Assembly: GCA_025999395.1 (NCBI GenBank)
Contig: AP024682.1
Coordinates: 468,680 to 532,679 of the forward strand
Direction: 5' to 3'
DNA: 64,000 bases
DNA from: Candidatus Parcubacteria bacterium
Lineage (GTDB): Bacteria; Patescibacteriota; Minisyncoccia; UBA6257; JAGOQP01
Made by a program: the position numbers and the translations under genes
Shown here: one piece after another, positions 20,369-60,581 of the stretch
How positions within the stretch are numbered: the stretch's first letter is position 1
Layout: every line of letters begins with the position of its first letter
The notes under the pieces: generated by a model
Told to the model about the DNA's origin: nothing
What the model saw: the letters and a program-made list of their open reading frames with translations, nothing else
Database searches by the model: none

Positions 20369-20394
20369 GATTAGCAAATTAAGAATTTAACTTG

Positions 20395-20468
20395 GGAGGC
20401 TAAGCGGATTTGAACCGCTGCTAACAGGGCCACAACCTGTTGTGCTACCGGGCTACACCATAGCCTCC
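20395..20468 (-). tRNA. tRNA-His (GTG) with encoded G-1
   Basis: Hand-folded cloverleaf: anticodon loop TTGTGGC, G-1 pairs with C73 (a His identity element), T-loop TTCAAAT. Confidence 0.8.
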
Positions 20469-20550
20469 ATCATTTTTTCTTGATTTTACGCTATTTATTG
20501 ATAAAATCAAGAAAGCACAACAAATTCGTTTCTAGTAAAAACAAATTTGA

Positions 20551-20623
20551 GCCCCCGTAGCTCAATGGATAGAGCAGGTCCCTTCTAAGGACAAGATGAG
20601 GGTTCGATTCCTTCCGGGGGCGC
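20551..20623 (+). tRNA. tRNA-Arg (TCT)
   Basis: GCCCCCG acceptor, D-arm GCTC/GAGC, anticodon loop CTTCTAA, T-loop TTCGATT. Confidence 0.75.
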
Positions 20624-20686
20624 TTTTTTTATTGATTTTTTTTCATTCAATTGATATCTTTAAAAAGTAATTGAAAACAAAAAATT

Positions 20687-20761
20687 GCCGCGGTAGCTCA
20701 GTGGTAGAGCGCATGCCTGAAGAGCATGGCGTCGGGGGTTCGATTCCCTCCCGCGGCACCA
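20687..20761 (+). tRNA. tRNA-Phe (GAA), CCA encoded
   Basis: GCCGCGG acceptor, anticodon stem CATGC/GCATG with loop CTGAAGA, T-loop TTCGATT, 3' CCA. Confidence 0.85.
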
Positions 20762-21352
20762 ATGACAAAAAAACAAAAAAATAAACTTGTTTTTATTTTT
20801 ATCACCGGAAATAAAAATAAAGTTCTTGAAGCTCGTCAAATTCTCAAGGATTTCGAAATAAAACAATGTACCCTCAATCTTCCCGAAATTCAAAGCTTAA
20901 AGGTAGAAGAAGTTGTTAAAGAAAAAGCAAAAGAAGCTTTCAAGATAGTTAAAAAACCAGTTCTGGTTGAAGACACTAGTCTTGAAATCAAAGCTTGGAA
21001 TAACTTTCCGGGAGCATTAATTAAGTTTCTTTTAGAAAGTGTTGGGGTGCAAGGAATTATAAAAATGCTTTCTGGAGAAAAAAATCGCTTTGCTGTTGCC
21101 AAAACAGCGCTTGGTTTATACGATGGAAAAAATTTAAAGGTTTTTGTTGGAAAGATTGAAGGAACTATTTCCAAAAAAGTCTCTGGTAAAAAAGGATTTG
21201 GCTGGGACTCAATTTTTATCCCCCAAGGATTAAAAAAAACTTTCGCTCAAATGAATTCCGAAGAAAAAAACTCTCTTTCTATGAGAAGAAAAGCTCTTGA
21301 AAAAATGGAAAGGTATTTAATTAAAGTAAAGAAAAACACTTTAAAAAATTAA
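20762..21352 (+). CDS. rdgB: non-canonical purine NTP pyrophosphatase (RdgB/Ham1 family)
   Basis: FITGNKNK, EDTSLEI..NNFPGAL, GFGWDSIFIP and SMRRKAL motifs; ATG immediately follows the tRNA-Phe CCA; the longer track ORF from 20726 would overlap the tRNA. Confidence 0.8.
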   Translation: MTKKQKNKLVFIFITGNKNKVLEARQILKDFEIKQCTLNLPEIQSLKVEEVVKEKAKEAFKIVKKPVLVEDTSLEIKAWNNFPGALIKFLLESVGVQGIIKMLSGEKNRFAVAKTALGLYDGKNLKVFVGKIEGTISKKVSGKKGFGWDSIFIPQGLKKTFAQMNSEEKNSLSMRRKALEKMERYLIKVKKNTLKN

Positions 21353-21397
21353 GAGATTGAAATTGTTTTCTTTTTTGATAAATTTATAAGAGCAATT

Positions 21398-21468
21398 CGG
21401 GCCGTAGTGTAATGGTAGCACGAGTCCTTTGGGAGGATTTAGTCCGAGTTCGAATCTCGGCGGCCCGA
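21398..21468 (+). tRNA. tRNA-Pro (TGG)
   Basis: CGGGCCG acceptor pairing with CGGCCCG, anticodon loop TTTGGGA, A73 discriminator. Confidence 0.75.
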
Positions 21469-21475
21469 CAAAAAT

Positions 21476-21502
21476 AAAAACCTTCATTGATGAAGGTTTT
21501 TT
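21476..21502. terminator. bidirectional terminator hairpin between convergent tRNA-Pro and tRNA-Ala
   Basis: AAAAA-CCTTCA-TTGA-TGAAGG-TTTTTT. Confidence 0.6.
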
Positions 21503-21509
21503 AATTATG

Positions 21510-21583
21510 TGGACCCGATCGGGCTCGAACCGACGACCTCCTCGATGCCATCGAGGCGCTCTAGCCAACTGAGCTACGGGCCC
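21510..21583 (-). tRNA. tRNA-Ala (GGC)
   Basis: GGGCCCG acceptor with a G3:U70 wobble (the Ala identity element), anticodon loop ATGGCAT, T-loop TTCGAGC. Confidence 0.75.
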
Positions 21584-21679
21584 TTTTGAAAATTTAAGAA
21601 AATTTGATTTTACTAAAATAAATAATACAATAAGAGAAAATCAATTTCAACACAAAAAAGATAATCGGATTTTTTAAGA

Positions 21680-21754
21680 GCCCCCGTAGTTCAACGGATA
21701 GAACAGATCCGTCCTAAGGATAAAATGGAAGTTCGATTCTTCCCGGGGGCACCA
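21680..21754 (+). tRNA. tRNA-Arg (CCT), CCA encoded
   Basis: Close paralog of the Arg-TCT gene; anticodon loop GTCCTAA; 3' CCA. Confidence 0.75.
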
Positions 21755-21758
21755 AAAA

Positions 21759-21846
21759 GGAGGGTTGGCAGAGTGGTCGAATGCGCCGCACTCGAAATGC
21801 GGTTGGGGACAAAATCCCCTCAGAGGTTCGAATCCTCTACCCTCCG
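21759..21846 (+). tRNA. tRNA-Ser (CGA), class II with long variable arm
   Basis: GGAGGGT acceptor, anticodon stem CCGCA/TGCGG with loop CTCGAAA, variable arm GGGGACAAAATCCCC, G73. Confidence 0.8.
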
Positions 21847-21929
21847 CTGATTTTAAGCCTAAAAAGAAGCCTTTTAAAAAACATTATGTTATACTTTTAT
21901 TAATTGAATTTTGTTTTAAACTTTTCACT

Positions 21930-23566: not shown

Positions 23567-25087
23567 TTACTGACGATTAGTATAAAAAGTAACCTGAAAG
23601 CTAACCAGATTACTCTCTAAAGGAGTAAGGCTGGCTAAAGGCAAATCGACTTTGCTTAAACCATTTATTTTCTCTAAGGACTTCTTAAACTCTACCGCTT
23701 CAGATTCAGAGGAAGCACGAGCATTAACAATAATAGGCACATCTGGAGATTGAATAAGAATTCTTTCAATTGTTATTTTATTTTCAGATGCTTTTTGATA
23801 AAGCTCTTCAATTAACCAAGCCCAGCGAGTTTGTTGAGATTTAACTGTAAGCGCTTTTTCCACCTTAAGATTAAAATCATTAGCTTCATTCTTTAGAGAA
23901 TTAAAATAAGCAGTGTTATAAGAAGAAGAAATATTAGATAAATCATTAGTTAAACTTTTAATAAAAAGGTTTAAGAAGATAAAAATCCCCAAGAAAGCCG
24001 TTAAAATCACTGATAAAGAAACGATTAAAATATTTCTCCACAAGCGAACAAAAGAAAGAACTTGGGAATGAAAAAATTGAATTTCAGTTCCCTCAGGAGC
24101 AAGGCTAATTTCTGTATCTTGAGAACGCGGAATTAAACCTCTTAAAGCCGCCCCTAATGCACAAGCAAAAGAAAGCTCTAAGGGATAACTTTTTATCTGA
24201 AACGGGAGAATTTGTAAGCTGAAATTATCCTTTAAAATTCCGCTAACCTCTTTTTCCAATCCGGGAGCAATTAAATAAACATTTTTAATATCCCTACTAA
24301 AGCGACTGGAATAAAAATTAATTACTCTATGAGTCTCCTGAATAACAAGATTTCGAAAATCAGCAAAAGAAATTTCTCTTTCCAAGCTATAATTACTTGC
24401 TACCGTGCTCCAAGAAGAAAAATGATTAAAGTAAAGAGAGTGTTTGTGAACAATAGAAAAGCTTAAACCATCACTATCAATATAAAGAACAAAAAAATCT
24501 TCTTCTCCCAAAGTATTTTTCTCTTCAAAATTAATTAAACGGATAATAGACATTGCCTTTTGTTCAATCGCCAAAGGCAAGAAATTGGCTTGAACAAGTT
24601 GATGATAAAAACTATCTACAATCTCCTTAGAAATGAAAGAGGAGAGAATTTCTATTTCATAATTAGAATTGGAGTGCAAACTTTCTACTTTTTGCCAATC
24701 AGAATAGGCTCGAGAAAAATCAAGAGGAGAAATAACCTGTAAATTAAGACGAACCGCTTCTTCCAAGTTTGCATCTTTTAAAAGAGGAAGAGAAAAAAGC
24801 TGGGTATAAACATTAGCATCAGAAAGAGAGACGATTACAGGAATTTTTTCTGATTCCTTTGAAGTAATTTGATGATGTAAGCTTTTGAGAGAATTGAAAA
24901 ATTCTTTGGGGTTAATCAGTTTTCCCTCTTCGATAACACCCACAGGAAACTTTAAAGAAAACTTTTGAAGTTGTCCTCTTTTTTCCCCGAAAGAAAAAAA
25001 AGTCAACCCGCTATCACTAATCACCAAACCGCCAATTTCTAAGTAGGGTTTTAAGAAGCGAAAAACTTTTTTTAAAAAAACACTCAT
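23567..25087 (-). CDS. pilM: type IV pilus assembly protein, PilM-like actin-fold ATPase fused to a PilN-like TM/periplasmic region
   Basis: PilM-like N-terminal 340 aa, TM helix ILIVSLSVILTAFLGIFIFLNLFI, about 130-aa C-terminal domain; heads the pilus locus. Confidence 0.6.
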   Translation of the reverse strand: MSVFLKKVFRFLKPYLEIGGLVISDSGLTFFSFGEKRGQLQKFSLKFPVGVIEEGKLINPKEFFNSLKSLHHQITSKESEKIPVIVSLSDANVYTQLFSLPLLKDANLEEAVRLNLQVISPLDFSRAYSDWQKVESLHSNSNYEIEILSSFISKEIVDSFYHQLVQANFLPLAIEQKAMSIIRLINFEEKNTLGEEDFFVLYIDSDGLSFSIVHKHSLYFNHFSSWSTVASNYSLEREISFADFRNLVIQETHRVINFYSSRFSRDIKNVYLIAPGLEKEVSGILKDNFSLQILPFQIKSYPLELSFACALGAALRGLIPRSQDTEISLAPEGTEIQFFHSQVLSFVRLWRNILIVSLSVILTAFLGIFIFLNLFIKSLTNDLSNISSSYNTAYFNSLKNEANDFNLKVEKALTVKSQQTRWAWLIEELYQKASENKITIERILIQSPDVPIIVNARASSESEAVEFKKSLEKINGLSKVDLPLASLTPLESNLVSFQVTFYTNRQ

Positions 25088-25118
25088 AAATTAGATTGGT
25101 ATCTCTTACTACAAACTT

Positions 25119-25616
25119 TTACTGAGCGGTGATTTCTTCAATCGACTCTAAAATTACTTGACCACTTAAAGGATGAAGATAAACTCGAGCTTTGTATTTT
25201 TTGTTTTTATTTAAAAAAGTTGCCAAAGAAACCACTTCGTATCTATCTGTCAAAGACGGCGTCCCACAACTTGTTCCCCCCAAATAAGTTAAATTTTTAC
25301 AAACCGTTATTTGAACAGGAATACTGGAGATATTTAAGTTATAAGAAGTACTTGAAGAAAAGTCATTGTGAATAATTCTTCTTAAAGCGTCGTTAATTCC
25401 CGAAAAAGCAGCAAAATTAACTAAATTTAAAATTCTTACTCCCAACCCTCCCTGACTAGCAAGATAAGAAATAAGAAGAGCAGCCAAAGCTATCTCAAAA
25501 ACAACCATTCCCACAATTAAAATCGAAGAAACAGCCAACGCCCCGCTCTGATTTTTTTTGTCAAGGAAATTAACTTTAACAACTTCTAATAAACTCACTT
25601 TTAAATTATAGCACAA
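25119..25616 (-). CDS. hypothetical membrane protein in pilus locus (possible PilO or minor pilin-like)
   Basis: One N-terminal TM helix; sits between pilM/N and the pilin genes. Confidence 0.4.
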   Translation of the reverse strand: MCYNLKVSLLEVVKVNFLDKKNQSGALAVSSILIVGMVVFEIALAALLISYLASQGGLGVRILNLVNFAAFSGINDALRRIIHNDFSSSTSYNLNISSIPVQITVCKNLTYLGGTSCGTPSLTDRYEVVSLATFLNKNKKYKARVYLHPLSGQVILESIEEITAQ

Positions 25617-25647
25617 GCAACAATTTTCAAAAAATTACTTTTAAAAA

Positions 25648-26127
25648 TTAAGGGTTGGTTGTTGTATTTTGATTAACAGAAGAACTAGAATCTAAGCTGC
25701 TGTTATTTGAAAAATTTTCAGGATAACTAGAGGAATTAGGATTGGAAATATTAACATTAGGATTTGATAAATTAGAGCTTTTACCAGAAACTAAAGAAAA
25801 AATCTGACTAGTAGGAGAAATTTTAGCTATCCAAACAACTTGATCTTTATTTATTTTGATTTTATCTTCTGGACCCCAAACTGATTGGTCAAAACGGCTA
25901 ATAGAAACCTCTCCTTGAGAATTAGTTCTTAGATACCAAACGTTTGAAAGACTAAGATAAGGAAATCGAGATAATTTTCCAAAATAAATGTCCCCTGTTT
26001 TTAGATAAACCGCATAATAATCATCAAAATCAAATTTGGAAAAATAAAAAAATAAAAAGACTGAAGTTAACAAAATTAAAAAAACTATTAAAAAAAACCC
26101 GATTAGAAAAACATTTCTTTTGATCAT
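25648..26127 (-). CDS. hypothetical membrane protein with N/S-rich C-terminal tail
   Basis: N-terminal TM helix, low-complexity NSS tail; pilus-locus context. Confidence 0.4.
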   Translation of the reverse strand: MIKRNVFLIGFFLIVFLILLTSVFLFFYFSKFDFDDYYAVYLKTGDIYFGKLSRFPYLSLSNVWYLRTNSQGEVSISRFDQSVWGPEDKIKINKDQVVWIAKISPTSQIFSLVSGKSSNLSNPNVNISNPNSSSYPENFSNNSSLDSSSSVNQNTTTNP

Positions 26128-26223
26128 ATTTCTTAAAAGTTAATAATAAAAAACAAACATCTAAATAATAATACATCAATAATAATACATCAAAACAGAA
26201 AAATCCATTAAATTTTAAATAAA

Positions 26224-27840
26224 TTAAGGAGACCAGTTAACTACAATTCCATCAACAGTGGGGCTTAAAGTATATCCTGAATCTGGAGAAAGAATAATTT
26301 TATATCGAAAATATCGATGATTATTATGATACTTTAAATTAATTTGAACAGGGATATTTGAATTATTAGGAGTATAATAAGTAGAACCAGAACCATCTGG
26401 ACCAAGATAATTCCAAGGGCCAGTAGAAGAATTAGAAGAAGCAATCTGAAATTTAACATTGGTGCCAGCGGGTTTTGTTCCTCTCCACATCAAAGAGTTA
26501 AAAGCTGCTCCTCCGTTTACTTGAGTATCGAAAGTAGAAGAGTACAAAATTCCATCAGAGCTTTTGTTGGTTATTTGTAAGGAAGAGCCGGCGCTAATAT
26601 TGCTTGCGGAAGAGTATTTATTATTTACTTCTGTAATAGGACCTTCTTGGCCACTTCCTCCCGACCAATCTTTTTGCCAAAAAACAAGATTTCTTTTTGA
26701 CCGAGTTAAATAAAAACTAATTTCATTCTTTCTTCCATTAGTCCAAACAACGGCACTAGTTATTTTTTGAGTCGAAGGATCATCATTATTTGAATTATAA
26801 GTTGACTCAATAACGCCATTTGTATCTCGAGAAACATTATCGACATAAAAATAACGATAATAAATCGAACTTTGATAAAGTTGTTTTATTTCATCAGAAG
26901 ATAAAACCCGATTATAAATACGGGCTTCATCAACAATACCAAAAGACATATAAGGACTACCACCACCAATCCTATAATCAGCAGTTCCATAATCTCTTAA
27001 AGGTTTTGTAATAGATGCTGTAGAACCAACTTGAGAACCATTAAGATAAAGTTTAAATTGATTATTAACTTCATCAACTGTCATCACTATATGATACCAA
27101 TTACCAACTGCTAAATTTTTACCACTGTAAATAACAGTATTGGTATTATCATAATAATAAATGACTGCTCTCAACTCTCCTGTTGATAAAGTATAAAACA
27201 AACCCAAATGATAGCCAGCTCTTAAAAAGATATATCCATCATACCCATTTTTAGGTAGTCCAGAAGGTTTAAACCAAACAGCAAAAGAAAAATTCCGACC
27301 ATCATCAGTTAAATCTTGTAAAGTAGAAGAATTGCCAGGAATAGAAACATAGTCATCTATTCCATCTAAACTTAGCCCCCTTCCGGCATAAGCAGTAGTT
27401 CTTAAAGGACTATTGATAAGAGTGCCATTGTTTCCATATCCAGAAAAGTCATAAGCAGTATTTCCTGATATTTCATCAAGTTTCCAATAACCAACAAGAC
27501 CAGCATTTATATCATTAGCCAAAACACTCTCCTGACCAGAAACAGCTGAAGTTAAAGAAGAACTAGAAACTAAATAAAATTGATTAGTTGACCCTTTGGC
27601 TAAATCATAGATGTTATGCCAGTTAGATTCAGCAAAGGAACTTATTTTATTTGAAAGTTCAGAAACTAAATTAGTAGCAATCTGATTTCCTCTTGATTCA
27701 AAGTTATTTCTAACAACACTTAAAATAGCAGCTGTTGCTGCTGCTAAAAGCAAACTTAAAACAGCCAGTGAAATTAAAATTTCTGCCAGCAGTTGCCCTT
27801 TTTCACAAGAAAATTTTTTTCTCAAAAAATCTCTTTTCAT
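26224..27840 (-). CDS. large type IV pilin-like protein with LamG (concanavalin A-like lectin) domain, 538 aa
   Basis: Class III prepilin-like N-terminus KGQLLAEILISLAVLSLLL (E at +5), LamG hallmarks GLVGYWKLDE.. and LSLDGIDDYVSIPG..ARIYNRVLSSDEIKQLY. Confidence 0.7.
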   Translation of the reverse strand: MKRDFLRKKFSCEKGQLLAEILISLAVLSLLLAAATAAILSVVRNNFESRGNQIATNLVSELSNKISSFAESNWHNIYDLAKGSTNQFYLVSSSSLTSAVSGQESVLANDINAGLVGYWKLDEISGNTAYDFSGYGNNGTLINSPLRTTAYAGRGLSLDGIDDYVSIPGNSSTLQDLTDDGRNFSFAVWFKPSGLPKNGYDGYIFLRAGYHLGLFYTLSTGELRAVIYYYDNTNTVIYSGKNLAVGNWYHIVMTVDEVNNQFKLYLNGSQVGSTASITKPLRDYGTADYRIGGGSPYMSFGIVDEARIYNRVLSSDEIKQLYQSSIYYRYFYVDNVSRDTNGVIESTYNSNNDDPSTQKITSAVVWTNGRKNEISFYLTRSKRNLVFWQKDWSGGSGQEGPITEVNNKYSSASNISAGSSLQITNKSSDGILYSSTFDTQVNGGAAFNSLMWRGTKPAGTNVKFQIASSNSSTGPWNYLGPDGSGSTYYTPNNSNIPVQINLKYHNNHRYFRYKIILSPDSGYTLSPTVDGIVVNWSP

Positions 27841-27851
27841 TTTAAAAAAAA

Positions 27852-29081
27852 TTAATAACTTTCATAAAGCTTTTTTATCTCATCTTCTGATAAGGCTCTG
27901 CTATAAATCCTAACCTCATCAACCAACCCATTAAAATGATCTGTTCCCACAGCTGATCCTTCTCTGTGAGCAATATGAATGGAACCAGTATCATTGTATA
28001 TGGAGCCGGTAGAAGTAGCTAAACCTTGAAAACTACCATCGACATAAATTTTTCTTTCTCCGGTTAAACTATCATAAGTACCAACAAAATGATGCCAATT
28101 TTGAGGATCATTAACAGTATAGCAAGGATTATACTGCCAAGTAGTAGTATAAATAATAAAACACATATTTTTACCTCCAGAAGCATTCGTTCCTAAAATA
28201 TAAGCCGAATACTTACTTACAATCTGATAAACTCCACTGTAACCAGTTGTCAAATTAGACTTAACCCAAGCAGAAACAGTAATAGCATTATTAGGATTTA
28301 TACTAGAAATATTTAAATAGTCATCAGTGCCATCAAAATTTAACGCCCCCCCTACTCTTCCTGAAAGACCGTTGTTCCATGCTTGACTAGTAGTTGTTTG
28401 AGTACCACTTGCTCCAACACTTAACAATCCATCTTTACTATAACCAGAAGCATCATAAGCATAACTACCGCTTGACTCATCCATTGGCCAGTAACCTACT
28501 AAACCCGATTCTTGCAAACTTCTTATTTGACCACTACTGCTAATAAAAATAGAATAAACATTATCTTTATTTTTTTGTTTTAAAGAAACTACCTGGGCAG
28601 CTGTTGGCTTTCCGGAAATTGCTGAAAAAGAAATAGTTTTGCTAAAACCAGGAGCTGGATTGGTTAATTCAGAAGCATAACTTAAAGAACCTCTTAAAAC
28701 TACAGAAGAAGTCGAATAACTAGGATCAGGAAAAATTTCGAAATAATCATCGGTAGAAGTACTATTAGTAAAACGAATACTCCAGCTACTTTTATTTTCC
28801 TGACTAATAGAACGTTGTTGAGTATTTCTAATAGATTCAACTACCTTCTCTACATCCAAATCAAAATTGCGTTTACTTTTATAAGAAGAAAAATTCACTA
28901 TTCCTATAGTTGCTAAAATCGCAATCAGACTAATGACAATAATTAATTCATAAAGAGTAAAAGCTTTTTCTTTCTTTATTAACTTTATTAAAAAACTAAT
29001 TTTGTTTTTAAAATTATAGAATTTAGTTAACCTATCTTTAATATTTCTTTCCATAAAAATAAAATCTAAAATTATTCTCAA
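27852..29081 (-). CDS. large type IV pilin-like protein with LamG domain, 409 aa (tandem paralog)
   Basis: KAFTLYELIIVISLIAILA prepilin-like helix; GLVGYWPMDE.., LNFDGTDDYLNIS, VRIYSRALSEDEIKKLY. Confidence 0.7.
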   Translation of the reverse strand: MRIILDFIFMERNIKDRLTKFYNFKNKISFLIKLIKKEKAFTLYELIIVISLIAILATIGIVNFSSYKSKRNFDLDVEKVVESIRNTQQRSISQENKSSWSIRFTNSTSTDDYFEIFPDPSYSTSSVVLRGSLSYASELTNPAPGFSKTISFSAISGKPTAAQVVSLKQKNKDNVYSIFISSSGQIRSLQESGLVGYWPMDESSGSYAYDASGYSKDGLLSVGASGTQTTTSQAWNNGLSGRVGGALNFDGTDDYLNISSINPNNAITVSAWVKSNLTTGYSGVYQIVSKYSAYILGTNASGGKNMCFIIYTTTWQYNPCYTVNDPQNWHHFVGTYDSLTGERKIYVDGSFQGLATSTGSIYNDTGSIHIAHREGSAVGTDHFNGLVDEVRIYSRALSEDEIKKLYESY

Positions 29082-29102
29082 CTATTTTTAACTTAATAAA
29101 AA

Positions 29103-30311
29103 TTAAAAAGAACTGGTTAATTGATAAACTGGAATAATAACCGCTAAAGCGATAATTCCAACAATTAATCCAATTAACATCAACATCACCGGCTCAATAA
29201 AAGAAACCAATGTTTTTACGGAAGATTCAACTTCTTTGGCGTAAAAATCAGCCAGAGTCGCTAAAATATTTTCAATATGGCCTGATTTTTCTGAAACCGC
29301 AATTAAGTTTGAAACTACTTTTGGAAAGAATGGTTCTTTGCGAAAAGCTTCCCCCACCGTTAAACCCCGGGTAATTCCTTCTCGAGAAATTCTTAAAAGA
29401 GCATTCTTTAATTCCGGCAATCCTACTGAATCAGCGGTAATTTCCAACGCCTCAATAATCGGCAAACCCGAACTAAGTAAAGAAGAAAGAGTGGCTGCAA
29501 ATCTTTGAAGAGAAATTTCTTTAAGCACCCGGCTAATCACTGGCAACCTTAAAGCAAGGTTAAAAAGAAATTTTTTCCCTACCAAAGTTTTAAAAAAGAA
29601 AAGAAATCCTCCAAAAATTAAAAGCCCCAACAAAGATAAAATTAAAGCCAGATGATTTCCAATAAAAAGACCAACTGTAAAAACAATTCTTGAGAAAGTA
29701 GGAGGATTCATTCCCCCGGAAAGAAAAACAGTTGCGATTTTAGGCAAAGAAAAGCTTACTAAAAGAACCAAAACCAAAATAGAAGCAAAGAAAAGAATAA
29801 TTGGATAAGTTAAAGATGATTTAATTTTGCTGTTAAGTTCCCTTTCTTTTTCTAAAGAGGTACTCAATTGATCAAAAACTCTTTCTAGGTTTCCCGAAAC
29901 TTCCCCTGCCTTAATAAGATTAACAAAAACCTGAGAAAAAATTTTGGGATAATGAGCAAAAGTAGTATAAAAAGGCTGCCCTTTTTCTAAACTGGAACGC
30001 ACCTCTAGAAGCAAAGATTTAACTGCTGGTTTATCAAAATCTTCTATTAGAATATCAATCGCCTTAAAAAGATCGGTACCTACTTTTAACATCAAGGAAA
30101 GATACTTAGTAATAAAAACTTTGTCCTCAAGAGTAATTTTCTGATGAACCAAGGCACCAACTTGGAAAGAAAATCTTTTAATCGGCTTAATTAAAATAGG
30201 CTTTAATCCCATCGAAGCAACTTTGGCAATTGCTTCAGATGATCCCTGAGCCTCAATTTCTCCTTCGGCTATTCTGCTGTCTGGGCGAACTGCTTTATAA
30301 TAAAAACGCAT
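29103..30311 (-). CDS. pilC: type IV pilus inner-membrane platform protein PilC (GspF family)
   Basis: Duplicated GspF domain architecture, three TM segments, 402 aa. Confidence 0.85.
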   Translation of the reverse strand: MRFYYKAVRPDSRIAEGEIEAQGSSEAIAKVASMGLKPILIKPIKRFSFQVGALVHQKITLEDKVFITKYLSLMLKVGTDLFKAIDILIEDFDKPAVKSLLLEVRSSLEKGQPFYTTFAHYPKIFSQVFVNLIKAGEVSGNLERVFDQLSTSLEKERELNSKIKSSLTYPIILFFASILVLVLLVSFSLPKIATVFLSGGMNPPTFSRIVFTVGLFIGNHLALILSLLGLLIFGGFLFFFKTLVGKKFLFNLALRLPVISRVLKEISLQRFAATLSSLLSSGLPIIEALEITADSVGLPELKNALLRISREGITRGLTVGEAFRKEPFFPKVVSNLIAVSEKSGHIENILATLADFYAKEVESSVKTLVSFIEPVMLMLIGLIVGIIALAVIIPVYQLTSSF

Positions 30312-30378
30312 AATTTTATTTTTTGATTAAATTTTTAATTGGCAATTTCAAAAAATCAACTAATAACTATTTAAAAAA

Positions 30379-32091
30379 TTATTCCCGAATTACTCTCAAG
30401 ACTTCTTCAATGGTAGTTTGCCCCAAAGAGGCTTTCCTTAATCCATCTTCAAACATTGTAACCATTCCATTCTTTTTAGCAGCCATTGTTAAAAGGTCTA
30501 AAGAAAAATCTGGGCTAACAATAATCTTTCTAATATCTTCATTTACCTCAAGTAATTCAAAAATACCCATTCTTCCTCGATAACCAGTTCCCCCACAAGA
30601 TTTACAACCTTTCCCTCGATAAAGAACTCGAGGAATATTTGAATCAGGTAAGTTTAGACTTTTTATTTGTGTTCTTAAAGAATGAAGGAAATCTTCCGAA
30701 GGAGAAAAAGACTCGATACAATCAAGACAAATTTTTCTTACCAAGCGTTGTGCCAAAACCATATTTAAAACCGCCGCTACCAAAAAAGGGGGAATTCCCA
30801 TATCAATTAACCGCGGAACAGCGGTGGGAGCATCGTTGGTATGAAGAGATGACAAAAGTAAATGTCCAGTTAAGGCCGCATTAACAGCAATTTCAGCGGT
30901 TTCTTGGTCTCTAATTTCTCCTACCATAATAATGTTTGGGTCTTGCCTTAAAATAGAACGCAACCCCGAAGCAAAAGTGATTCCCGCCAAAGGATTAATC
31001 TGCACCTGATTGATATACTTGATGTTATATTCAATCGGATCTTCGATAGTAACAATGTTTACTTCCGGCCGATTCAACATATTTAAAATAGAATACAAAG
31101 TAGTAGTTTTTCCCGAACCCGTGGGCCCAGTTACCAAAATCATCCCGTAAGTTTTTTTAATATTTTCCTCTACTATCTTTGCCGTCTCTTCGGTCATTCC
31201 TAACTCAATTAAAGAAAGAGGTCTTTGAGTAGCGGGAAGAAGCCTTAAAACAATTTTTTCTCCATACAAAGTGGGAATTACTGAAACTCTGACATCAATT
31301 ACCGTTGATCCGACTTTATAACGAAAGCGTCCGTCTTGGGGTTTTTGGTGTTCATCTACTTTTAAGGAAGCTAAAAGTTTGATGCGAGCAACAATGGCTG
31401 GATGAACTTCTTTAGGAATCTGAAAAACTTCGTGTAAAATTCCATCAATTCGAAAACGCACTAAAATACTATCCTCCATAGCTTCTAGATGAATATCGGA
31501 AGTGTTTAAAGAAGAAGCGTAAGAAAGAGTGTTATTAACAATTTCTACTATTGGAAGCTGAGTAGCCGCTTCTTCTTCTTTAGAAGCGCTAATTTTCCTC
31601 TCCAAAGAAGCTTTGATATTTTCTTCAATTAAACGTTTGAAATCTTGAGTCAGCTGAGAACCATAAGCGGAAAAACCAAAGGCTAAATCATCATCAGAGG
31701 CCAAAAAAGGTCTAATTTTGGAAGATAGTTTTTTTTCTAAAAATTCTATAGTTATTAAATCGGTTGGATCTGCCATTGCCAAATCGATTGTTCCGTCTCC
31801 TTCTTGAGCAAAAGCGATAACATTTTTTTCTCGAGCAAATTTTTCTTCAATTTTATAAAGAACCTCTCGATTAATTCCTCGATACCTTAAATTAGCCAAT
31901 TCTACCCCAAAAAAATTAGAAGCTAAATGAAGTAGAAAATCCTTAGTAACAAATCCTTTAGAAATCAAAACATCTCCTAAATCTTGATTCATTCGGCGCG
32001 CTTCTTCTAAAGCTTGGTTGAAATCTTCTTCCTCAATTAATCCTTGTTCTAAAAGAAAAGTTTTAAGTTTTTGAGAAGGAATGGGTACCAT
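30379..32091 (-). CDS. pilB: type IV pilus assembly ATPase PilB (GspE family)
   Basis: Walker A GPTGSGKTTTLYS, Asp and His boxes, tetracysteine CLDC..CKSCGG motif. Confidence 0.9.
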   Translation of the reverse strand: MVPIPSQKLKTFLLEQGLIEEEDFNQALEEARRMNQDLGDVLISKGFVTKDFLLHLASNFFGVELANLRYRGINREVLYKIEEKFAREKNVIAFAQEGDGTIDLAMADPTDLITIEFLEKKLSSKIRPFLASDDDLAFGFSAYGSQLTQDFKRLIEENIKASLERKISASKEEEAATQLPIVEIVNNTLSYASSLNTSDIHLEAMEDSILVRFRIDGILHEVFQIPKEVHPAIVARIKLLASLKVDEHQKPQDGRFRYKVGSTVIDVRVSVIPTLYGEKIVLRLLPATQRPLSLIELGMTEETAKIVEENIKKTYGMILVTGPTGSGKTTTLYSILNMLNRPEVNIVTIEDPIEYNIKYINQVQINPLAGITFASGLRSILRQDPNIIMVGEIRDQETAEIAVNAALTGHLLLSSLHTNDAPTAVPRLIDMGIPPFLVAAVLNMVLAQRLVRKICLDCIESFSPSEDFLHSLRTQIKSLNLPDSNIPRVLYRGKGCKSCGGTGYRGRMGIFELLEVNEDIRKIIVSPDFSLDLLTMAAKKNGMVTMFEDGLRKASLGQTTIEEVLRVIRE

Positions 32092-32187
32092 ATAATGAAA
32101 AGTATTTTCTTTCTGTACTTTTTATTTTAACACAAATTTAGGCTTAAAAAAACAAATTGCCAAGATTTTTGTTTAAAATTAGATGAA

Positions 32188-32218
32188 ATAAAAAAGAAAA
32201 CGCCTTTCAAAAGGCGCT
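32188..32218 (-). terminator. strong rho-independent terminator after the major pilin gene
   Basis: Minus strand GCGCCTTTTGAAAGGCG followed by TTTTCTTTTTTATTT. Confidence 0.7.
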
Positions 32219-32248
32219 TTCTAAAAAAGAGTTGAGCAAACTTTACAA

Positions 32249-32794
32249 CTATAAGTCTAATCCCGGCTCCGTTCCAACTTCATAAATGGTGGTAGAATTG
32301 CCACCGTCGTTTCCTTCTTTGTCATTTGTTCCACCAGAAGAATATTTGGCACTTTCTAAATCAGCGTTTAATTCAAAAGTTAAATTTGTTGCATCTGCAT
32401 CCCATGCATAATGATAAGTACCATCATTTATTGGATCTCTAGGCCACGCAGAAATGGGTGGTGGAGGACTTGTCATTGCTGTTAAATCGACTCCTACCCA
32501 ACCATTATTAATAGCAAAACCCCTAGTTGAACAAGTTCCAACTAAACTATAACAACTTCCAGTAGCAGAAGCAAAAGGACCGGATGTCAAAGTAGGATTT
32601 GAAACTGTCGAAAGATACAAAGCAACCACACTTTTCACAGTATCTAAATCAGACATTCTTTGAACATCACGCGCTTGTCTTAGCAATTCCGCTGGGTTAA
32701 GTACTACTACCACTGCAGCTGCCAAGATGGCCAAGATACCAATAACTACCAACAATTCTACCAAAGTGAAACCCTTTTTATTTTCTTGATTCAT
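32249..32794 (-). CDS. pilA: type IV major pilin (PilA-like)
   Basis: Canonical prepilin leader MNQENKKG|FTLVELLVVIGILAILAA. Confidence 0.85.
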   Translation of the reverse strand: MNQENKKGFTLVELLVVIGILAILAAAVVVVLNPAELLRQARDVQRMSDLDTVKSVVALYLSTVSNPTLTSGPFASATGSCYSLVGTCSTRGFAINNGWVGVDLTAMTSPPPPISAWPRDPINDGTYHYAWDADATNLTFELNADLESAKYSSGGTNDKEGNDGGNSTTIYEVGTEPGLDL

Positions 32795-32960
32795 AGTTTT
32801 TTCAACTTAAATTAATTTTAATGAATTATAAATTAAAAAAAATAGAAAAATAAAATTAAATAAATTATCGACCCCAAAACTAAAACACTCCCTTAAACAT
32901 TATAAAAAAATAGAAAAAAAATCAAAAAAAATCTGTTGATAACTTAACTAAAAATTAAAA

Positions 32961-33365
32961 CTAAGAAGGATTGAGGAAACTTAAAATGTTGGTTACTAAA
33001 TCGTCAATTGAGGTTTTAGCTTTAATAAAGTACTCAATCGCCCCCAGTTCTTGTCCTTTGGCTACATCTTCCGGCTGCCCCAAATTAGAAATAATAATAA
33101 TAGGAGCGCTGTTAAGTTGAGGATCTTGTCTAATTTCTTCCATCACTTCAAAACCTGATTTCTTGGGTAAAATTAAATCAAGCAAAATCAAATCTGGTTT
33201 GGTGCTGGTTTGAAGAAAAGAGATTGCCTCCTGACCATCTTTGGCATGAATTACCTCTATCCCTTCTCGGCTAAACCGATTTTTCAAAAGAGAAGAAAGA
33301 AACGGATCATCTTCTACCAAAAGAATTTTTTTATTTCCCTTTGTTGCTTCCATTGTTGTTTCCAT
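32961..33365 (-). CDS. single-domain response regulator (CheY-like receiver, PilH/PilG-like)
   Basis: KILLVEDDP..LDLILPKKSGFEV receiver motifs, no output domain, 134 aa. Confidence 0.8.
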   Translation of the reverse strand: METTMEATKGNKKILLVEDDPFLSSLLKNRFSREGIEVIHAKDGQEAISFLQTSTKPDLILLDLILPKKSGFEVMEEIRQDPQLNSAPIIIISNLGQPEDVAKGQELGAIEYFIKAKTSIDDLVTNILSFLNPS

Positions 33366-33555: not shown

Positions 33556-35105
<1,550 letters not shown>

Positions 35106-35432: not shown

Positions 35433-35702
35433 ATGAAGAAAGATATCCATCCTACCTATTATCCAGACGCCAAAGTAGTTTGCGCTTGCGGAAATACTTT
35501 CACTGTTGGCTCAACCAAAAAGGAAATTAAAGTTGAAATTTGCTATGCTTGCCATCCTGCTTACACTGGAAAAGAAAAATTGATTGATACCGCTGGCCGA
35601 GTAGAAAAATTTAAAGCTAAAAGAGAAAAGGCAGCCAAAGTTACTACCCGAAAAAAGTCAGAAAAAAGAGCCGCTAAAAAAGTAAAGAAAGAGAAAAAGT
35701 AG
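35433..35702 (+). CDS. rpmE: 50S ribosomal protein L31
   Basis: [10 protein letters not shown]..CxCG..CxxCHP zinc-ribbon L31 signature. Confidence 0.9.
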
Positions 35703-35755: not shown

Positions 35756-36490
35756 ATGGAAACAATCAACAAAATTGTTATAGAAATTCGAGCGGGCGCG
35801 GGAGGAGATGAAGCAGCAATTTTTGCGGGCGATCTGGTTAATATGTATCAAAAATATTCCCAAAAGAAGGGGTGGAAATTTACGGTTCTTGATTTTAATA
35901 AAACCTCTTTGGGTGGCTATAAAACTTTCATTGGTAAAATAGAAGGTCAAGGAGTTTATGACGAACTCAAGCAAGAATCGGGCGTTCATCGCGTTCAAAG
36001 AATTCCTAAAACTGAAAAATCAGGCCGCATTCACACTTCCACCGCCTCCGTAGCTATTTTACCGATCGTCGAACCAAAAGAGATTCAAATCAATGAAAAC
36101 GATTTAGAAATTACCTTCTCCCGCGCCGGAGGGCCCGGAGGACAAAATGTTAACAAAGTAGAAACTGCCGTCAGAATTCTTCACAAACCCACCGGGATTG
36201 TAGTCTCTTCTCGGGAAGAACGTTCTCAACACGCTAATCGAGAAAGAGCCTTAGAAATTTTAAGAGCTAAACTTTATGAAATTCAAAGAGAAGAACAGGA
36301 AGGAAAACTAACCGCTGAAAGGCGAGCTCAAATTGGCTCTGGTGAGCGCTCCGAAAAAATCAGAACCTATAACTTTCCCGAAGACAGAATTACCGACCAT
36401 CGAATTGGCAAAAAATTCCACAACATTGAAAAAATTTTAGACGGCGATTTAGAGCCAATAATTGAAGCTTTCAAAAATCAAAGAAAATAA
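35756..36490 (+). CDS. prfA: peptide chain release factor 1 homolog lacking N-terminal domain 1 (244 aa)
   Basis: Begins at the domain-2 motif [19 protein letters not shown]; RF1-type tripeptide region [14 protein letters not shown] (PxT); GGQ motif ([11 protein letters not shown]); only 53 nt separate it from rpmE, so no space for domain 1. Confidence 0.8.
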
Positions 36491-38815: not shown

Positions 38816-40021
38816 CTACTTATAAGAAACTTCAACGCTATCAATCCACAACCGTCCTTCACTGCCAGCATGTCCGTAAAGATAAAGAGAGACATTGTGA
38901 CTATTAAGCTCCCAATCACTATCAATAGTAAATTCTTGGCTGACTTCTTCCCATCGATTAGCTCTACTTAAACTTTTGGTTACAATTGCTGTTCCAAAAG
39001 TATAAACTCCAGAAGCGTTTGACCAGTGATAAAGGCCAAAATAAGTAGGTTTTCCGGTAGTACTGACTTTTGCCATAAATCTAACTTTTACTTTAGTGCC
39101 ATTCGTCCATCCTAAAGATATTCCCGGCGTAGAAAAAGTTTGAGCAAATCCTAACCATCGATGACAATACCCGTAGGTACAATTTTCATCTATATATTCC
39201 AATCCGCCGCTATTTTTTATTCCTCCTGTAGAAGTAGCGTGAGCATGATAGCCAACCGAAGGATTGGTCACTCCAGAATTATAACCAGAACTAAAACCAT
39301 TAGTAGGCCGATAAGTTCCGTTTAAGTTTACATCCCAGCCGGGAGTATAAGGAGTAGTTAGATCATTAACAGAAGAATTAATAACAATATTTTCGTTTTT
39401 ATAAAAAGACAAATTATCTCCTTTTTCATAAGAGTAATCACTAATTCCCCCATCGCTTGACGAAATTTCTTTATCCCCTCCGGGTTTATAATCAAAGCTT
39501 TCGAAGTTTTTTGCTCCTACCACAAATTTTCCCGCTCCATCAGTCGCATAGAAATAATAAAGGTTTTCAGTATCAGAATTAGTTGGGTCAATCGGTAAAG
39601 AAGAAGCCCCCAGCGAAGATAAACCGTCTGTCAAGTTAATAGGAATCCAACCAGTGCTATCAATTTTTAAAAGATTAGCCGAAGAAACACATCGATAACT
39701 CCACCCCGAAGGCAATTTTGGAAGATTTAGATCAGAACAATTTTGATTAGCCGAAGGAAGAGAAAGGTAAAGAGTATTTGCACTTCCCAAAGAAAGAGCC
39801 CGGTTGCCTTTGTATTTATAGTTAGAAATTAAAAGAGCTAACTGATTAATATCAGCAATTCTTTTAGAATCTCTGGCTCTTTTAAAATACTCAACGGGAT
39901 TAAGAACAAGTACTACCGCTGAAAACAAAATAGACAAAATTCCAATCACTACCAAAATTTCAACCAGAGTGAAAGATTTATTCGAATTAAAAAAATTTCT
40001 TGTTTTAATAAATCCCCCCAT
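38816..40021 (-). CDS. large type IV pilin-like protein (401 aa) with C-terminal carbohydrate-binding-like domain
   Basis: NKSFTLVEILVVIGILSILFSAVVL prepilin-like helix (Ser at -1); N-terminal about 190 aa paralogous to the 54274-55542 protein (LPSGWSYRCV.., WIPIN/WIPVN). Confidence 0.6.
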   Translation of the reverse strand: MGGFIKTRNFFNSNKSFTLVEILVVIGILSILFSAVVLVLNPVEYFKRARDSKRIADINQLALLISNYKYKGNRALSLGSANTLYLSLPSANQNCSDLNLPKLPSGWSYRCVSSANLLKIDSTGWIPINLTDGLSSLGASSLPIDPTNSDTENLYYFYATDGAGKFVVGAKNFESFDYKPGGDKEISSSDGGISDYSYEKGDNLSFYKNENIVINSSVNDLTTPYTPGWDVNLNGTYRPTNGFSSGYNSGVTNPSVGYHAHATSTGGIKNSGGLEYIDENCTYGYCHRWLGFAQTFSTPGISLGWTNGTKVKVRFMAKVSTTGKPTYFGLYHWSNASGVYTFGTAIVTKSLSRANRWEEVSQEFTIDSDWELNSHNVSLYLYGHAGSEGRLWIDSVEVSYK

Positions 40022-46832: not shown

Positions 46833-48602
46833 TTAACGAATCTTCTCTAAAATTTCAAGAAGAAGAGATTTGGCCGATTCCAAAACACTCGCCATTTGAC
46901 CTTCAATTGAATCACTAGAAGAATTTTGCTCTAATTTTTCTTCACCTGTTTCTCCTACATTTACACTAATACTAGTTTTTGCACTAGCTCCTTTGTCATC
47001 AGTTACTGTAAATGTTGGGTTATAGATTCCCGCTTTACTATAAGAATGAGTAAAGGTTGCTGATTGCTGGAAGGAAGCAGAAGAAGGAGCTGCTTGCATT
47101 CCTGTTGCTGTAGCTTCATCTCCCCAAATTACCGAATAACGCAAACTTCCATTTTCTGGATCAGAAGCTTTAACTGTCCAGGTTCCCTGTTGATTAACTG
47201 AAAGAGTAGTTGGACCATCAACTTCATGAATTACTGGAGGTTGATTAGCGGTGGTAGTGCCGCTTGTAATTTTGAAGTAACCGTCACTAGAATCACATCT
47301 ATCGTTTGTCTCACTTTGACAAACTTGAATTCTATAAGAACCATCAGGTGCTATAATGCTTGTACCACTATAATTTATAACCTTGCCAACCGACCACTTG
47401 TACGAAAAACCTTCTACTTTTTTAGCAATAACATAAGGCATGACAGCATACATCGGACAAACGCTTCCTGTACAAGGCTGAAATTCCGGAATTAACCTGA
47501 TATCCCAGAATTTTGGTGCTGGAGGAGAACATTCGGCTCCCGATGGGCAGCTTGGCACAGGTGTATTATCTCGCCAGTTAATTACTTGCGTTGTTCCCTT
47601 TACCCAAGTTTCTCCTCCGTTAGGAGAAAGAACAGTAACAACAGAAGAGGTAGGTAAAGAAGACCCCTCGTAAGCTTCAACCTCATAAGCTACAAGGCCG
47701 TTAAAGCCGCCTTCCAATTTTATGTATTCAAGATACCCCTTAATCACTACTTGCTGATTTTCCAGCTTTTTAAGTTTTTCTAAAACATTATCATTAGCCG
47801 CTTTGACACGATAAAGTACCGATACTGGCAAACAAGGAGCTTTTACACAAATAACCTGCTCTTGTGTGGAAAGAGTGTGGGTTCCCCACATATAAATACT
47901 TGGTTCCGCTGCCTTCAAGAAACCAATAAATCTCTTCATCATTCCCCTTTCCAATGGTGGTTGTGAAGGAGTAATTCCTCCTGTTTCGGGAGGCATTACT
48001 TTTGGTGGAACACCCGGAGAAATTGTTTCACAGCCATACAATGCATTTAACTTTGCTCGAGTTGATTTACCAACAAGCCCAGTAGGATATTTTAATCCCA
48101 AAGGATCAAGAATTTCGCTGCGATATTTTTCTTGAAAACCACTTACTGCTGACGCAGTCGCTTCGCCAAACACTCCTGATTCTCTTTCTTCTCTTAAATT
48201 AAAACCCTCAGCTTCTAAAATTCTTTGAAGAGCTAAAACTGCCTCGCCCCGGCTTCCTAAAGAAAGATTAAAGTTAAAGTTATAACACAATCGGTTATCC
48301 CTCGAAGGAGGAACAACAACTCCCATCGGTGGCACTTTTGTTGCCGAGGAATCAAAAGTTTTTCCTTCTTCTTTTAAAGAATCTTCCTTACCCCCTTCTC
48401 TTACAGGCGGTCCCAAAAAGATGGGAGTTTTCAATGAGGCTCGCACCTGCTGAAGTTGAGCTTGTAGTTGAGAAACCATTCTCATTAATTCTTGAATTTT
48501 TGCCTCCAAAGAAGTTAGCTCACTTTGAGCAAAGGCTTTCCCTTGAAAGAAAGCTACACCCAAGCCAAGAACAATTACAAAAAACAAAAATTTTTTAGTC
48601 AT
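46833..48602 (-). CDS. secreted protein with peptidoglycan-binding domain and C-terminal Ig/PKD-like region
   Basis: Signal peptide; PG_binding_1-like LGSRGEAVLALQRILEAEGF..GVFGEATASAVSGFQ; beta-rich C-terminus. Confidence 0.6.
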   Translation of the reverse strand: MTKKFLFFVIVLGLGVAFFQGKAFAQSELTSLEAKIQELMRMVSQLQAQLQQVRASLKTPIFLGPPVREGGKEDSLKEEGKTFDSSATKVPPMGVVVPPSRDNRLCYNFNFNLSLGSRGEAVLALQRILEAEGFNLREERESGVFGEATASAVSGFQEKYRSEILDPLGLKYPTGLVGKSTRAKLNALYGCETISPGVPPKVMPPETGGITPSQPPLERGMMKRFIGFLKAAEPSIYMWGTHTLSTQEQVICVKAPCLPVSVLYRVKAANDNVLEKLKKLENQQVVIKGYLEYIKLEGGFNGLVAYEVEAYEGSSLPTSSVVTVLSPNGGETWVKGTTQVINWRDNTPVPSCPSGAECSPPAPKFWDIRLIPEFQPCTGSVCPMYAVMPYVIAKKVEGFSYKWSVGKVINYSGTSIIAPDGSYRIQVCQSETNDRCDSSDGYFKITSGTTTANQPPVIHEVDGPTTLSVNQQGTWTVKASDPENGSLRYSVIWGDEATATGMQAAPSSASFQQSATFTHSYSKAGIYNPTFTVTDDKGASAKTSISVNVGETGEEKLEQNSSSDSIEGQMASVLESAKSLLLEILEKIR

Positions 48603-48794
48603 ATTTTTAATTAAAAATAATCAATAATAAAAAGTTAAGTTGAATAAATTTAAAAACGACCTTTGAAAAATCATTTTGAAGATTATAGCAGAATGCCTAA
48701 ATTTTACTACTTCCCTCTATAAAAACCAATATTCTGCTCTCGGTAGTGAATAAAAATCTCCCTATAATATAAATGTCAAGGGTTAGTTAACGTT

Positions 48795-51104: not shown

Positions 51105-51243
51105 AAGAAAGATAAATTTTAATAAAAACCAAGACTTTTTTAAAAAGACCTTTTTAATTCTTTTGGTAATTATAAGCTAATTCTTTGGAAAAGAGAAGAA
51201 AGTCTACAAAATTTTTTATATCCTCAACAAATAAATATAAGAA

Positions 51244-52269: not shown

Positions 52270-52330
52270 AAATTATTTTTGTTATCTTCTCAAAAAATGA
52301 AATAGCCTTAAAAAACCAAATTCAAAAAAA

Positions 52331-60344: not shown

Positions 60345-60581
60345 TTAATTTTTCTCCTCCTCCTGATTCAATAAACCCAAATCTTTTAAGGCTTCGAGAT
60401 TAAATCTTACAAAACTTGATGATCCACTTTTTAACTCTAGCGCAAGATTAACTTTTTTTATCAAGAAACTAATAGAGTTAACGAAAAGAAAGATTAAAAG
60501 GGTAGCCAAAAAAAATCCGATCAAACTAAAATAAATCTCTCTTTTGTTCTTTTTGAAAAAACTAAAATCTATTTTTTTCAT
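60345..60581 (-). CDS. hypothetical small membrane protein (78 aa)
   Basis: One TM helix; located upstream of tRNA-Ile. Confidence 0.35.
   Translation of the reverse strand: MKKIDFSFFKKNKREIYFSLIGFFLATLLIFLFVNSISFLIKKVNLALELKSGSSSFVRFNLEALKDLGLLNQEEEKN

Follow-up and report, generated by a model that had tools for sequence, protein, structure and literature searches.

A type IV pilus operon of a Parcubacteria-type bacterium with two LamG-bearing minor pilins, one of them a nested insertion and gene fusion

The DNA considered here is a window of 64,000 nucleotides (nt) from a Candidatus Parcubacteria genome (assembly GCA_025999395.1, contig AP024682.1, positions 468,680 to 532,679 of the forward strand), in which positions 23567-33365 on the minus strand constitute a single type IV pilus (T4P) operon. 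Two adjacent minor pilins of this operon carry a LamG module, each in its own way: in pilin A, of 409 amino acids (aa), it is grafted onto the C-terminus of a canonical prepilin, and pilin B, of 538 aa, is a seemingly GspI-like prepilin (motif G/QLLxE) with a LamG module nested inside the pilin fold and a second beta-sandwich domain, here called C', fused to its end. By analogy with characterised pilins, the LamG minor pilins probably serve to grip a host cell, and this explanation as a whole, with the operon as the main T4P operon of a Parcubacteria-type bacterium of the candidate phyla radiation (CPR), is considered likely. The window has a GC content of ~34%, carries housekeeping genes and encodes a 538-aa pilin 100% identical to 'hypothetical protein KatS3mg098_489' of a Candidatus Parcubacteria metagenome-assembled genome, encoded there on a contig of 561,860 bp. 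Members of the CPR, or Patescibacteria, are obligate or presumed episymbionts; to our knowledge, host recognition by them is largely unknown outside a few cultivated Saccharibacteria. In coding order the operon comprises the following features.

32961-33365, minus strand: REC-only response regulator, first gene of the block (Pfam Response_reg 2.4e-21, no other domain)
32249-32794, minus strand: major pilin, 181 aa, leader MNQENKKG/FTLVE with cleavage after G (N_methyl 4.4e-9; TIGR02532 7e-8)
32195-32222, minus strand: intrinsic-terminator-like hairpin 3' of the major pilin gene (consensus match only)
30379-32091, minus strand: PilB extension ATPase with N-terminal MshEN/GSPII domain (T2SSE 1.2e-125, MshEN 4.7e-11)
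29103-30311, minus strand: PilC platform protein (T2SSF 2.2e-52, two repeats)
28512-28976, minus strand: pilin A, pilin moiety, residues 36-190, class III signal KEKA/FTLYE (ortholog comparison)
27855-28511, minus strand: pilin A, LamG module as C-terminal graft, residues 191-409 (Laminin_G_3 6.4e-26; Pentaxin 7.9e-7)
27505-27840, minus strand: pilin B, N-terminal part, residues 1-112, with leader, G15/QLLAE20, alpha-1 and first beta-strands (conserved motif, model)
26863-27504, minus strand: pilin B, nested LamG module, residues 113-326 (Laminin_G_3 3.4e-23; flanks contiguous in insert-free relatives)
26566-26862, minus strand: pilin B, rest of the globular pilin domain, residues 327-425
26227-26565, minus strand: pilin B, fused C' domain, a jelly-roll beta-sandwich, residues 426-538
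25648-26127, minus strand: 159-aa bitopic membrane protein with S/N-rich tail, lineage-specific (homolog search)
25119-25616, minus strand: 165-aa pilin-like protein, N-terminus QSG/ALAVSSILIV, no Glu5 (PilX/GspK-like by motif)
23567-25087, minus strand: PilM-PilN fusion, 506 aa (family profile against the Protein Data Bank (PDB); match to separate genes of a relative)

All nine open reading frames (ORFs) of the block are found on the minus strand as the first-pass annotation had placed them, and hidden Markov model searches of Pfam and NCBIfam supported PilB, PilC, the major pilin, the regulator and the LamG domains. The block is a genuine one that did not arise as a pattern by chance. For comparison, 80 PilB-centred loci, one genome per species (L-numbers below), were assembled and the window proteins searched against their ORFs. 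The best PilB match in the GTDB representative set is 65% identical, and PilB of the nearest relatives is 54-65% identical to that of the window. The closest relatives (L002-L021 of the 80 loci) share the order response regulator, major pilin(s), PilB, PilC, pilin A, pilin B, protein C, PilX-like protein and PilMN, which the window follows with the exception that protein C, a separate secreted protein with WAWNDxxGW repeats in these relatives, is represented by the C' domain at the end of pilin B.

The composite nature of pilin B (ORF 26224-27840) becomes apparent from its relatives, where it is usually a protein of 214-243 aa that corresponds to window residues ~8-110 joined directly to residues 325-420. 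In the alignment with the insert-free homolog P0032, window residues 15-112 match 5-102 and window residues 327-538 match 103-315; as the two flanks are contiguous in this homolog, the LamG stretch of residues 113-326 has been inserted into the pilin sheet, at its beta3-beta4 turn. Laminin_G_3 matches residues 160-319 of this stretch, and an AlphaFold2 model (mean confidence, pLDDT, 76.5) shows an all-beta beta-sandwich module at residues 119-309. The best Foldseek match of the module in the PDB is domain 4 of AbnA (5hon_A, E 1.4e-8, template modelling score 0.63, target-normalised), and further matches include the lectin-like Hc-N domain of tetanus and botulinum neurotoxins, the lectin domain of trans-sialidase and PTX3, with top E-values of 1e-8 to 1e-6. 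The presence of a LamG fold, which a structure prediction could have contradicted, thus stands as a ConA/LamG-type jelly roll. Residues 426-538 match the C-terminus of protein C and resemble carbohydrate-binding modules (CBMs) and sugar-recognition domains.

The N-terminus of pilin B is that of a prepilin. It gives no Pfam N_methyl match and has Gln at position +1, and G15, Q16, L18 and E20 are nearly invariant among 16 aligned orthologs; the model contains a 59-residue helix at 14-72 followed by strands at 88-107, and the insert-free ortholog of the nearest relative, L002, does match N_methyl (1.1e-5). The signals conserved among the orthologs of the 538- and the 409-aa proteins are of class III and not of the signal peptidase I type, in contrast to that of the separate protein C of the relatives, which is an AxA-type Sec signal. 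The earlier description of each tandem pilin as a prepilin helix combined with LamG consequently holds for both with respect to the two components, whereas the 538-aa protein arose by insertion of LamG into the pilin and by fusion of a further gene, and not by simple grafting.

As B and C have a gene each in close relatives and the same window holds a probably frameshifted RNase HII, the 538-aa ORF might be an assembly or frameshift artefact that joins two genes. This is extremely improbable. The signal peptide and the WAWND repeats of protein C are missing from the fused protein, which is thus not a simple read-through, and the model is confident across the B-C' junction. Full-length fused orthologs of 520-550 aa occur at 98-100% coverage in dozens of independent assemblies, and 40 uninterrupted B-C' cores of 307-367 aa are found among the best 150 cluster representatives of the family search described below. 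The independent full-length orthologs effectively refute an artefact, and the fusion is genuine.

The repeat of protein C, (W/F)AWND(x)2GW(I/L/M)(D/N)F, is itself unannotated; it recurs in the secreted C proteins (L002:14018-14854, L003:7199-8137, L005:14431-15312 and others), the L002 protein giving no Pfam match when scanned, and also forms an insertion of ~150 aa inside C' of the 690-700 aa pilin B orthologs P0002-P0005.

Pilin A (ORF 27852-29081) is the simpler of the two. Its pilin moiety occurs as a stand-alone minor pilin of 150-190 aa in nine loci (L002, L003, L004, L005, L008, L011, L014, L015 and L030), and a LamG module, which in the window is matched by Laminin_G_3 over residues 250-403 at E 6.4e-26, is present on the orthologs of L009, L012, L016 and L018 and missing from most others. 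With 20.8 bits the protein falls just short of the Pfam N_methyl cut-off of 21.2, and with the same score exceeds that of TIGR02532 (16.3). The orthologs have a canonical G/FTL(I/V)E signal, and that of the nearest relative, MKA/FTLIE, resembles the KEKA/FTLYE of the window. Matches to ComGD (2.5e-7) and GspH (2.3e-4) are weak and under cut-off, and a profile of the pilin A family matches many pilin alpha-1 helices in the PDB and nothing beyond alpha-1. The leader of pilin A (28976-29081, minus strand) is unusually long, with 31 aa from the ATG at 29054 or 40 aa from the TTG at 29081, and includes the hydrophobic stretch ISFLIKLI; ortholog leaders range from ~3 to ~40 residues and are mostly shorter than ~27. 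The ATG, which gives a protein of 400 aa, is the more likely start.

The two pilins had been regarded as tandem paralogs. Their LamG modules are related (33% identity), yet the pilin parts come from different minor-pilin families. A tandem with LamG in both A and B is also found in L009, L012 and L016. The Laminin_G_3 matches of the three LamG pilins of the window, the third of which lies outside the operon, score 82.9, 91.7 and 62.8 bits (cut-off 27.6) over profile positions 1-151. Recent gene conversion between the tandem modules was considered and rejected, as DNA repeats do not exceed a length of 44 nt, at 73% identity. The core of the pilin B LamG module (residues 161-299) shows a mean identity of 22% among the 16 orthologs compared with 44-60% for each scaffold segment, and identity in this core does not exceed 29% even for the closest ortholog.

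The scaffold belongs to a family of considerable size. An exhaustive profile search with the B-C' scaffold recovered 647 clusters (50% identity) at E<=1e-30 and 2,532 at E<=1e-10. The best 150 clusters comprise, besides the 40 uninterrupted cores, 10 that consist of pilin B only and 95 interrupted members of up to 1,533 aa, in which the breaks concentrate at profile positions ~85-105, the LamG site, and ~200-230. The inserts of 70 interrupted members, for the most part folds that bind ligands, contain Laminin_G_3 (36), Kelch (5), RCC1 (2), NHL (2) and PA14 (1) domains. Pfam N_methyl is matched at 1e-5 in just 3 of these 70, so that a census based on N_methyl would largely miss the scaffold family. 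We tentatively propose, as something possible rather than probable, that a large and mostly unannotated family of Patescibacteria combines GspI-like minor pilins (G/Q-S/L-L-x-E) with a CBM-like jelly roll into a plug-in scaffold that receives ligand-binding modules at two hotspots, with LamG in about half of the interrupted members and Kelch, NHL or RCC1 propellers, PA14 or folds of no known kind in the rest, and in which turnover of the LamG core is far more rapid than that of the scaffold. If this is true, the family would represent the principal host-range cassette of Parcubacteria-type episymbionts, and its split and fused states would mark the secreted jelly-roll protein as the CPR counterpart of PilY1-type tip adhesins. 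What this scaffold family with its insertion hotspots adds to the subject is new, if modest.

How such proteins might act can be outlined by analogy with the GspH-I-J-K and FimU-PilVWX priming complexes and with the PilA-B-C complex of Streptococcus sanguinis. Pilin A, the B-C' fusion and the 165-aa protein would assemble first on PilC and PilMN(O) and would prime the PilB-driven polymerisation of the major pilin beneath them, whereby the minor pilins would end up at the pilus tip. From this position both LamG modules, together with the C' jelly roll, would be displayed distally as ligand-binding heads, for which a glycan of the host cell envelope would be the likeliest ligand. A conserved scaffold with a hypervariable LamG core would fit a determinant of host specificity.

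The nature of the ligand is the point at which a first alternative arises, namely that the pilus-displayed LamG binds a non-glycan ligand, such as a host surface protein or S-layer, or captures a nutrient or polymer. The fold matches take in pentraxin, the neurotoxin Hc-N domain and other protein-binding jelly rolls besides CBM-like domains, and the best PDB sequence match is an S-layer-domain protein (4qvs_A, 2.1e-10). Nevertheless, the ConA-like pilin module that has been studied by experiment proved to be a lectin (PMC9934059), the C' domain next to LamG is likewise similar to CBMs and sugar-recognition domains, and host binding by Saccharibacteria is inhibited by sugars (PMC11623550), so that a non-glycan ligand appears unlikely.

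According to a second alternative, the pilus serves mainly for DNA uptake in competence, with bulky pilins for DNA capture or envelope crossing instead of host adhesion. It draws on DprA, encoded in the window with the PilO-like gene described below as its divergent neighbour, on the weak ComGD, ComGE and ComGC matches of pilin A and on the natural competence of CPR bacteria (PMC10187176). The ComG matches are far under cut-off and confined to the N-terminal helix region, though, and the LamG, Kelch, NHL, RCC1 and PA14 inserts are ligand-binding folds without known DNA-binding role; moreover, in Saccharibacteria, competence stayed at the wild-type level when those pilin genes that are open to testing, the non-essential ones of T4P-2, were mutated (PMC11623550). 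The dprA gene (61177-62055, 1e-75) is indeed present as annotated at first pass, but 28 kb away from the operon, which leaves its link to the pilus speculative. DNA uptake as the main function is rather improbable for these LamG pilins; DNA uptake and host adhesion are not mutually exclusive.

Several points weigh against host gripping by tip-located lectins. Ligand binding, tip location and piliation are putative for this organism, and 'lectin' and 'tip' are readings by analogy, the former with S. sanguinis PilC. PF13385 includes many non-lectin proteins, and some LamG folds bind proteins. Relaxed constraint or the replacement of modules, instead of selection for new specificities, could account for the low identity of the LamG core. 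With respect to the minor pilins, the GspI-like fold of pilin B was assigned on the insert-free homolog P0032 and not on the window protein itself, the putative H-like assignment of pilin A and the tentative PilX-like label of the 165-aa protein derive from sub-threshold matches, and no J-type minor pilin was recognised. Neither PilD nor the retraction ATPase PilT, an optional component that defines retractile T4aP, was found in the window or the flanking 10 kb on each side, so that prepilin processing and retraction are hypothetical.

The search for these components was made at several levels. Among window ORFs of at least 100 aa there is no second T2SSE ATPase, Peptidase_A24 or secretin, a regular expression for PilD motifs found nothing over all six frames of the window, and neither the window nor the 10 kb adjoining each of its ends encodes PilD, PilT or a secretin, in agreement with the earlier statement that secretin and retraction ATPase are lacking. 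Linkage of PilT and PilD to pilB is seen among the 80 loci only in those of Microgenomates/Saccharibacteria type, for PilT in L066, L075, L077 and L078.

Within the assembly machinery, PilB matches TIGR02538 as its best NCBIfam model at 547.8 bits, under the equivalog cut-off of 675. Its residues 12-54 score 41.1 bits (cut-off 38) with NF053729, a model of the MshE-related cyclic di-GMP-binding motif; cyclic di-GMP binding is doubtful because, as judged by eye, key Arg and Gln positions are substituted. In L007 (11757-13490) and L020 (1352-3085), a second full-length PilB-like ATPase of 577 aa directly follows pilB and replaces pilC, to which the window has no counterpart.

The 506-aa ORF alone matches no Pfam family and reaches TIGR01175 (pilM) at 2.3e-8, under cut-off. 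A profile of this protein and nine orthologs matches the PilM structures of Myxococcus xanthus (1.8e-15) and Thermus thermophilus (1.9e-12) and, weakly, M. xanthus PilN (0.022, positions 346-466), and the protein aligns with the adjoining separate PilM_2 (1.8e-47) and PilN (1.9e-8) genes of L023. Family profile and L023 genes together make the call of a PilM-PilN fusion, proposed at the outset, the right one.

The first-pass annotation had counted two membrane unknowns in the operon, which applies to one of them. The 159-aa protein has no Pfam or NCBIfam match, and its homolog among the 80 loci is confined to the nearest relative, L002, at the same position. The 165-aa protein, on the other hand, looks PilX-like. 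Its orthologs have a conserved G/(F/I/V/A)xAL... N-terminus without Glu5 and are located directly upstream of pilM/N in L002, L003, L004, L006, L008 and L011. The protein does not match Pfam PF14341 (PilX_N), nor does its family profile match any PDB sequence; its jackhmmer relatives of 400-460 aa reach PilX_N at E 2.5e-5 to 1.5e-3 (18.9-24.6 bits, cut-off 25.5). The protein is probably a PilX/GspK-like cap subunit.

At the upstream end of the operon, homologs of the regulator are found in 19 of the 80 loci and are likewise upstream of the major pilin in L003, L004, L006, L009, L014 and L018. Between regulator and pilB, relatives have one to four tandem copies of the major pilin gene. The strong terminator claimed after this gene corresponds to a good terminator-like hairpin at 32222-32195 with a 12-bp stem (5 GC pairs) and a 4-nt loop, followed by the T-run TTTTTATTTC; a terminator at this place would yield more pilin transcript than transcript of the machinery genes. 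Directly upstream of the regulator lies a complete 16S rRNA gene (33556-35104, minus strand, 1446 bits) with a terminator-like hairpin of its own at 33428-33398. It is solitary, with no 23S or 5S rRNA gene in the 64-kb window.

Three further features of the window, located away from the operon, relate to pili.

38816-40021, minus strand: orphan pilin, 401 aa, major-pilin-like domain and ~230-aa C-terminal module of no family (N_methyl 7.3e-6)
54274-55542, minus strand: orphan pilin, 422 aa, complete major-pilin-like domain and C-terminal LamG (N_methyl 8.4e-6; Laminin_G_3 5.2e-17)
60590-61117, minus strand: PilO-like bitopic protein, divergent from dprA (jackhmmer homologs)

Both orphan pilins have the signal S/FTLVE and might co-polymerise with the major pilin or act as alternative subunits. 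The 422-aa pilin is 34% identical to the 181-aa major pilin over the first 156 residues of the latter and, as had been noticed, shares its N-terminal region with the 401-aa pilin (48% identity over 155 residues). Both its pilin and its LamG domain are there, whereas the lack of a gap to pheS stems from taking the longest ORF, independent gene calls giving a protein of 419 aa and a gap of 9 nt. The C-terminal module of the 401-aa pilin matches nothing among PDB sequences, where only alpha-1 of the protein finds matches. The PilO-like protein has no Pfam match itself; jackhmmer homologs occur in 43 loci and directly follow PilN in L023 and L024, and the L023 homolog matches Pfam PilO at 0.0033, under cut-off, so that the link to PilO is transitive and sub-threshold. 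Directly downstream, a 78-aa bitopic ORF (60345-60581, minus strand), gene-called in two independent assemblies and without family match, may be another small component of pilus assembly.

Just upstream of the 422-aa pilin, a run of predicted secreted or surface proteins (46833-53155, minus strand), among them a 589-aa protein with PG_binding_1 and PKD domains, a PGA_cap protein and proteins of 769 and 274 aa without family, may provide further envelope or host-interaction factors. RNase HII (4247-4976, minus strand) is split into two overlapping ORFs of 142 and 110 aa where other assemblies of the organism have a single protein of 242 aa; the split is a frameshift in this record, by assembly error or as a pseudogene. 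A class-I release factor (35756-36490, plus strand) of 244 aa has PCRF and RF-1 domains, GGQ and PKT at the 'PxT' position of RF1; domain 1 appears to be missing, as the PCRF match starts at profile position 100 of its model and the protein has only 244 aa, and upstream lies rpmE (35433-35702) with no N-terminal exon or frameshift ORF visible. Finally, the tRNA genes at positions 20394-21847 form a cluster of seven (His, Arg, Phe, Pro, Ala, Arg, Ser) that uses both strands and has a Ham1-family gene interspersed, and the true start of the MgtE gene is probably further downstream than listed, as the first 80-odd nt of its ORF overlap tRNA-Ser.

With respect to known systems, modular pilins were defined by Raynaud et al. 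(2021, PNAS, PMC8179133) as a pilin module, a short linker and a functional module that is not specific to T4P, with IPR012902-PF13385 as the most frequent architecture (229 proteins, Dataset S1) and with several of the representatives shown for the top architectures coming from CPR phyla. The 409- and 422-aa proteins fit this definition exactly, whereas in the 538-aa protein LamG is nested in the pilin fold without a linker graft and an extra jelly roll is fused. With Gln at +1 and N_methyl matches so rare, the family of this protein would for the most part have escaped their census.

The glycan-binding pilin PilC of S. sanguinis is a ConA-like lectin that the I-like PilA stabilises, and modelling places their complex at the tip of the pilus (Shahin et al., 2023, PMC9934059). 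The present system shares with PilA-PilB-PilC a monoderm-type T4P without secretin, a minor pilin that is I-like there and putatively so here, and a ConA-like modular pilin. It differs in that no sequence relationship is detectable beyond the domain superfamilies and in that, whereas the S. sanguinis complex has two bulky modular pilins besides the I-like PilA, the putatively I-like pilin of the window itself bears LamG, both modular pilins are of LamG type, a vWA module is lacking and a candidate PilX_N-like protein is present.

Within the CPR, the lectin-like minor pilins PilX1 and PilX2 of the saccharibacterium Nanosynbacter lyticus TM7x are required for efficient host binding (PMC11623550; ISME J 2025, PMC12206443), and their C-terminal domains resemble L-type or beta-propeller lectins, with binding inhibited by sugars (PMC11623550). 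TM7x and the window thus have in common a CPR T4P with lectin-like minor pilins, and the scaffold family, too, has members with beta-propellers (NHL, Kelch, RCC1) as inserts. TM7x belongs to another CPR class, however, PilT and PilD form part of its locus but are missing from the window, and PilX1 and PilX2 are reported without PilD signal peptides, in contrast to the conserved G/A(-1)...E5 motifs of the window proteins. Compared with GspH-GspI-GspJ-GspK and FimU-PilV-PilW-PilX, a recognisable J-type is lacking and the H-like and K-like assignments are sub-threshold, and the inserts are beta-sandwich ligand-binding modules, not the alpha-domain of GspK. Like the PilY1/PilC tip adhesins of diderm T4aP, the protein C of split-gene loci is a Sec-secreted non-pilin encoded within a minor-pilin cluster, and its fusion to pilin B in other lineages implies, by this fusion alone, physical association with the minor-pilin complex; unlike PilY1, it has no sequence or fold relation to the beta-propeller and consists, in ~280-460 aa, of WAWNDxxGW repeats and a jelly roll.

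The locus adds a clean and nearly complete example from the much larger, uncultivated Parcubacteria branch. It points to three heads on the priming minor pilins, two of LamG type and one CBM-like, as the parts likeliest to contact the host, and its conserved scaffold is usable as a probe by which the variable module can be fetched from metagenomes and related to co-occurring hosts. The current picture is unchanged, since both the existence of modular lectin pilins and their adhesive role had been established before. As the LamG-pilin architecture, lectin pilins and their part in host binding have all been published, the operon is a well-resolved example and not a new system, and nested insertion, fusion and hotspot scaffold are refinements of the module-bearing lectin pilins rather than a new category.

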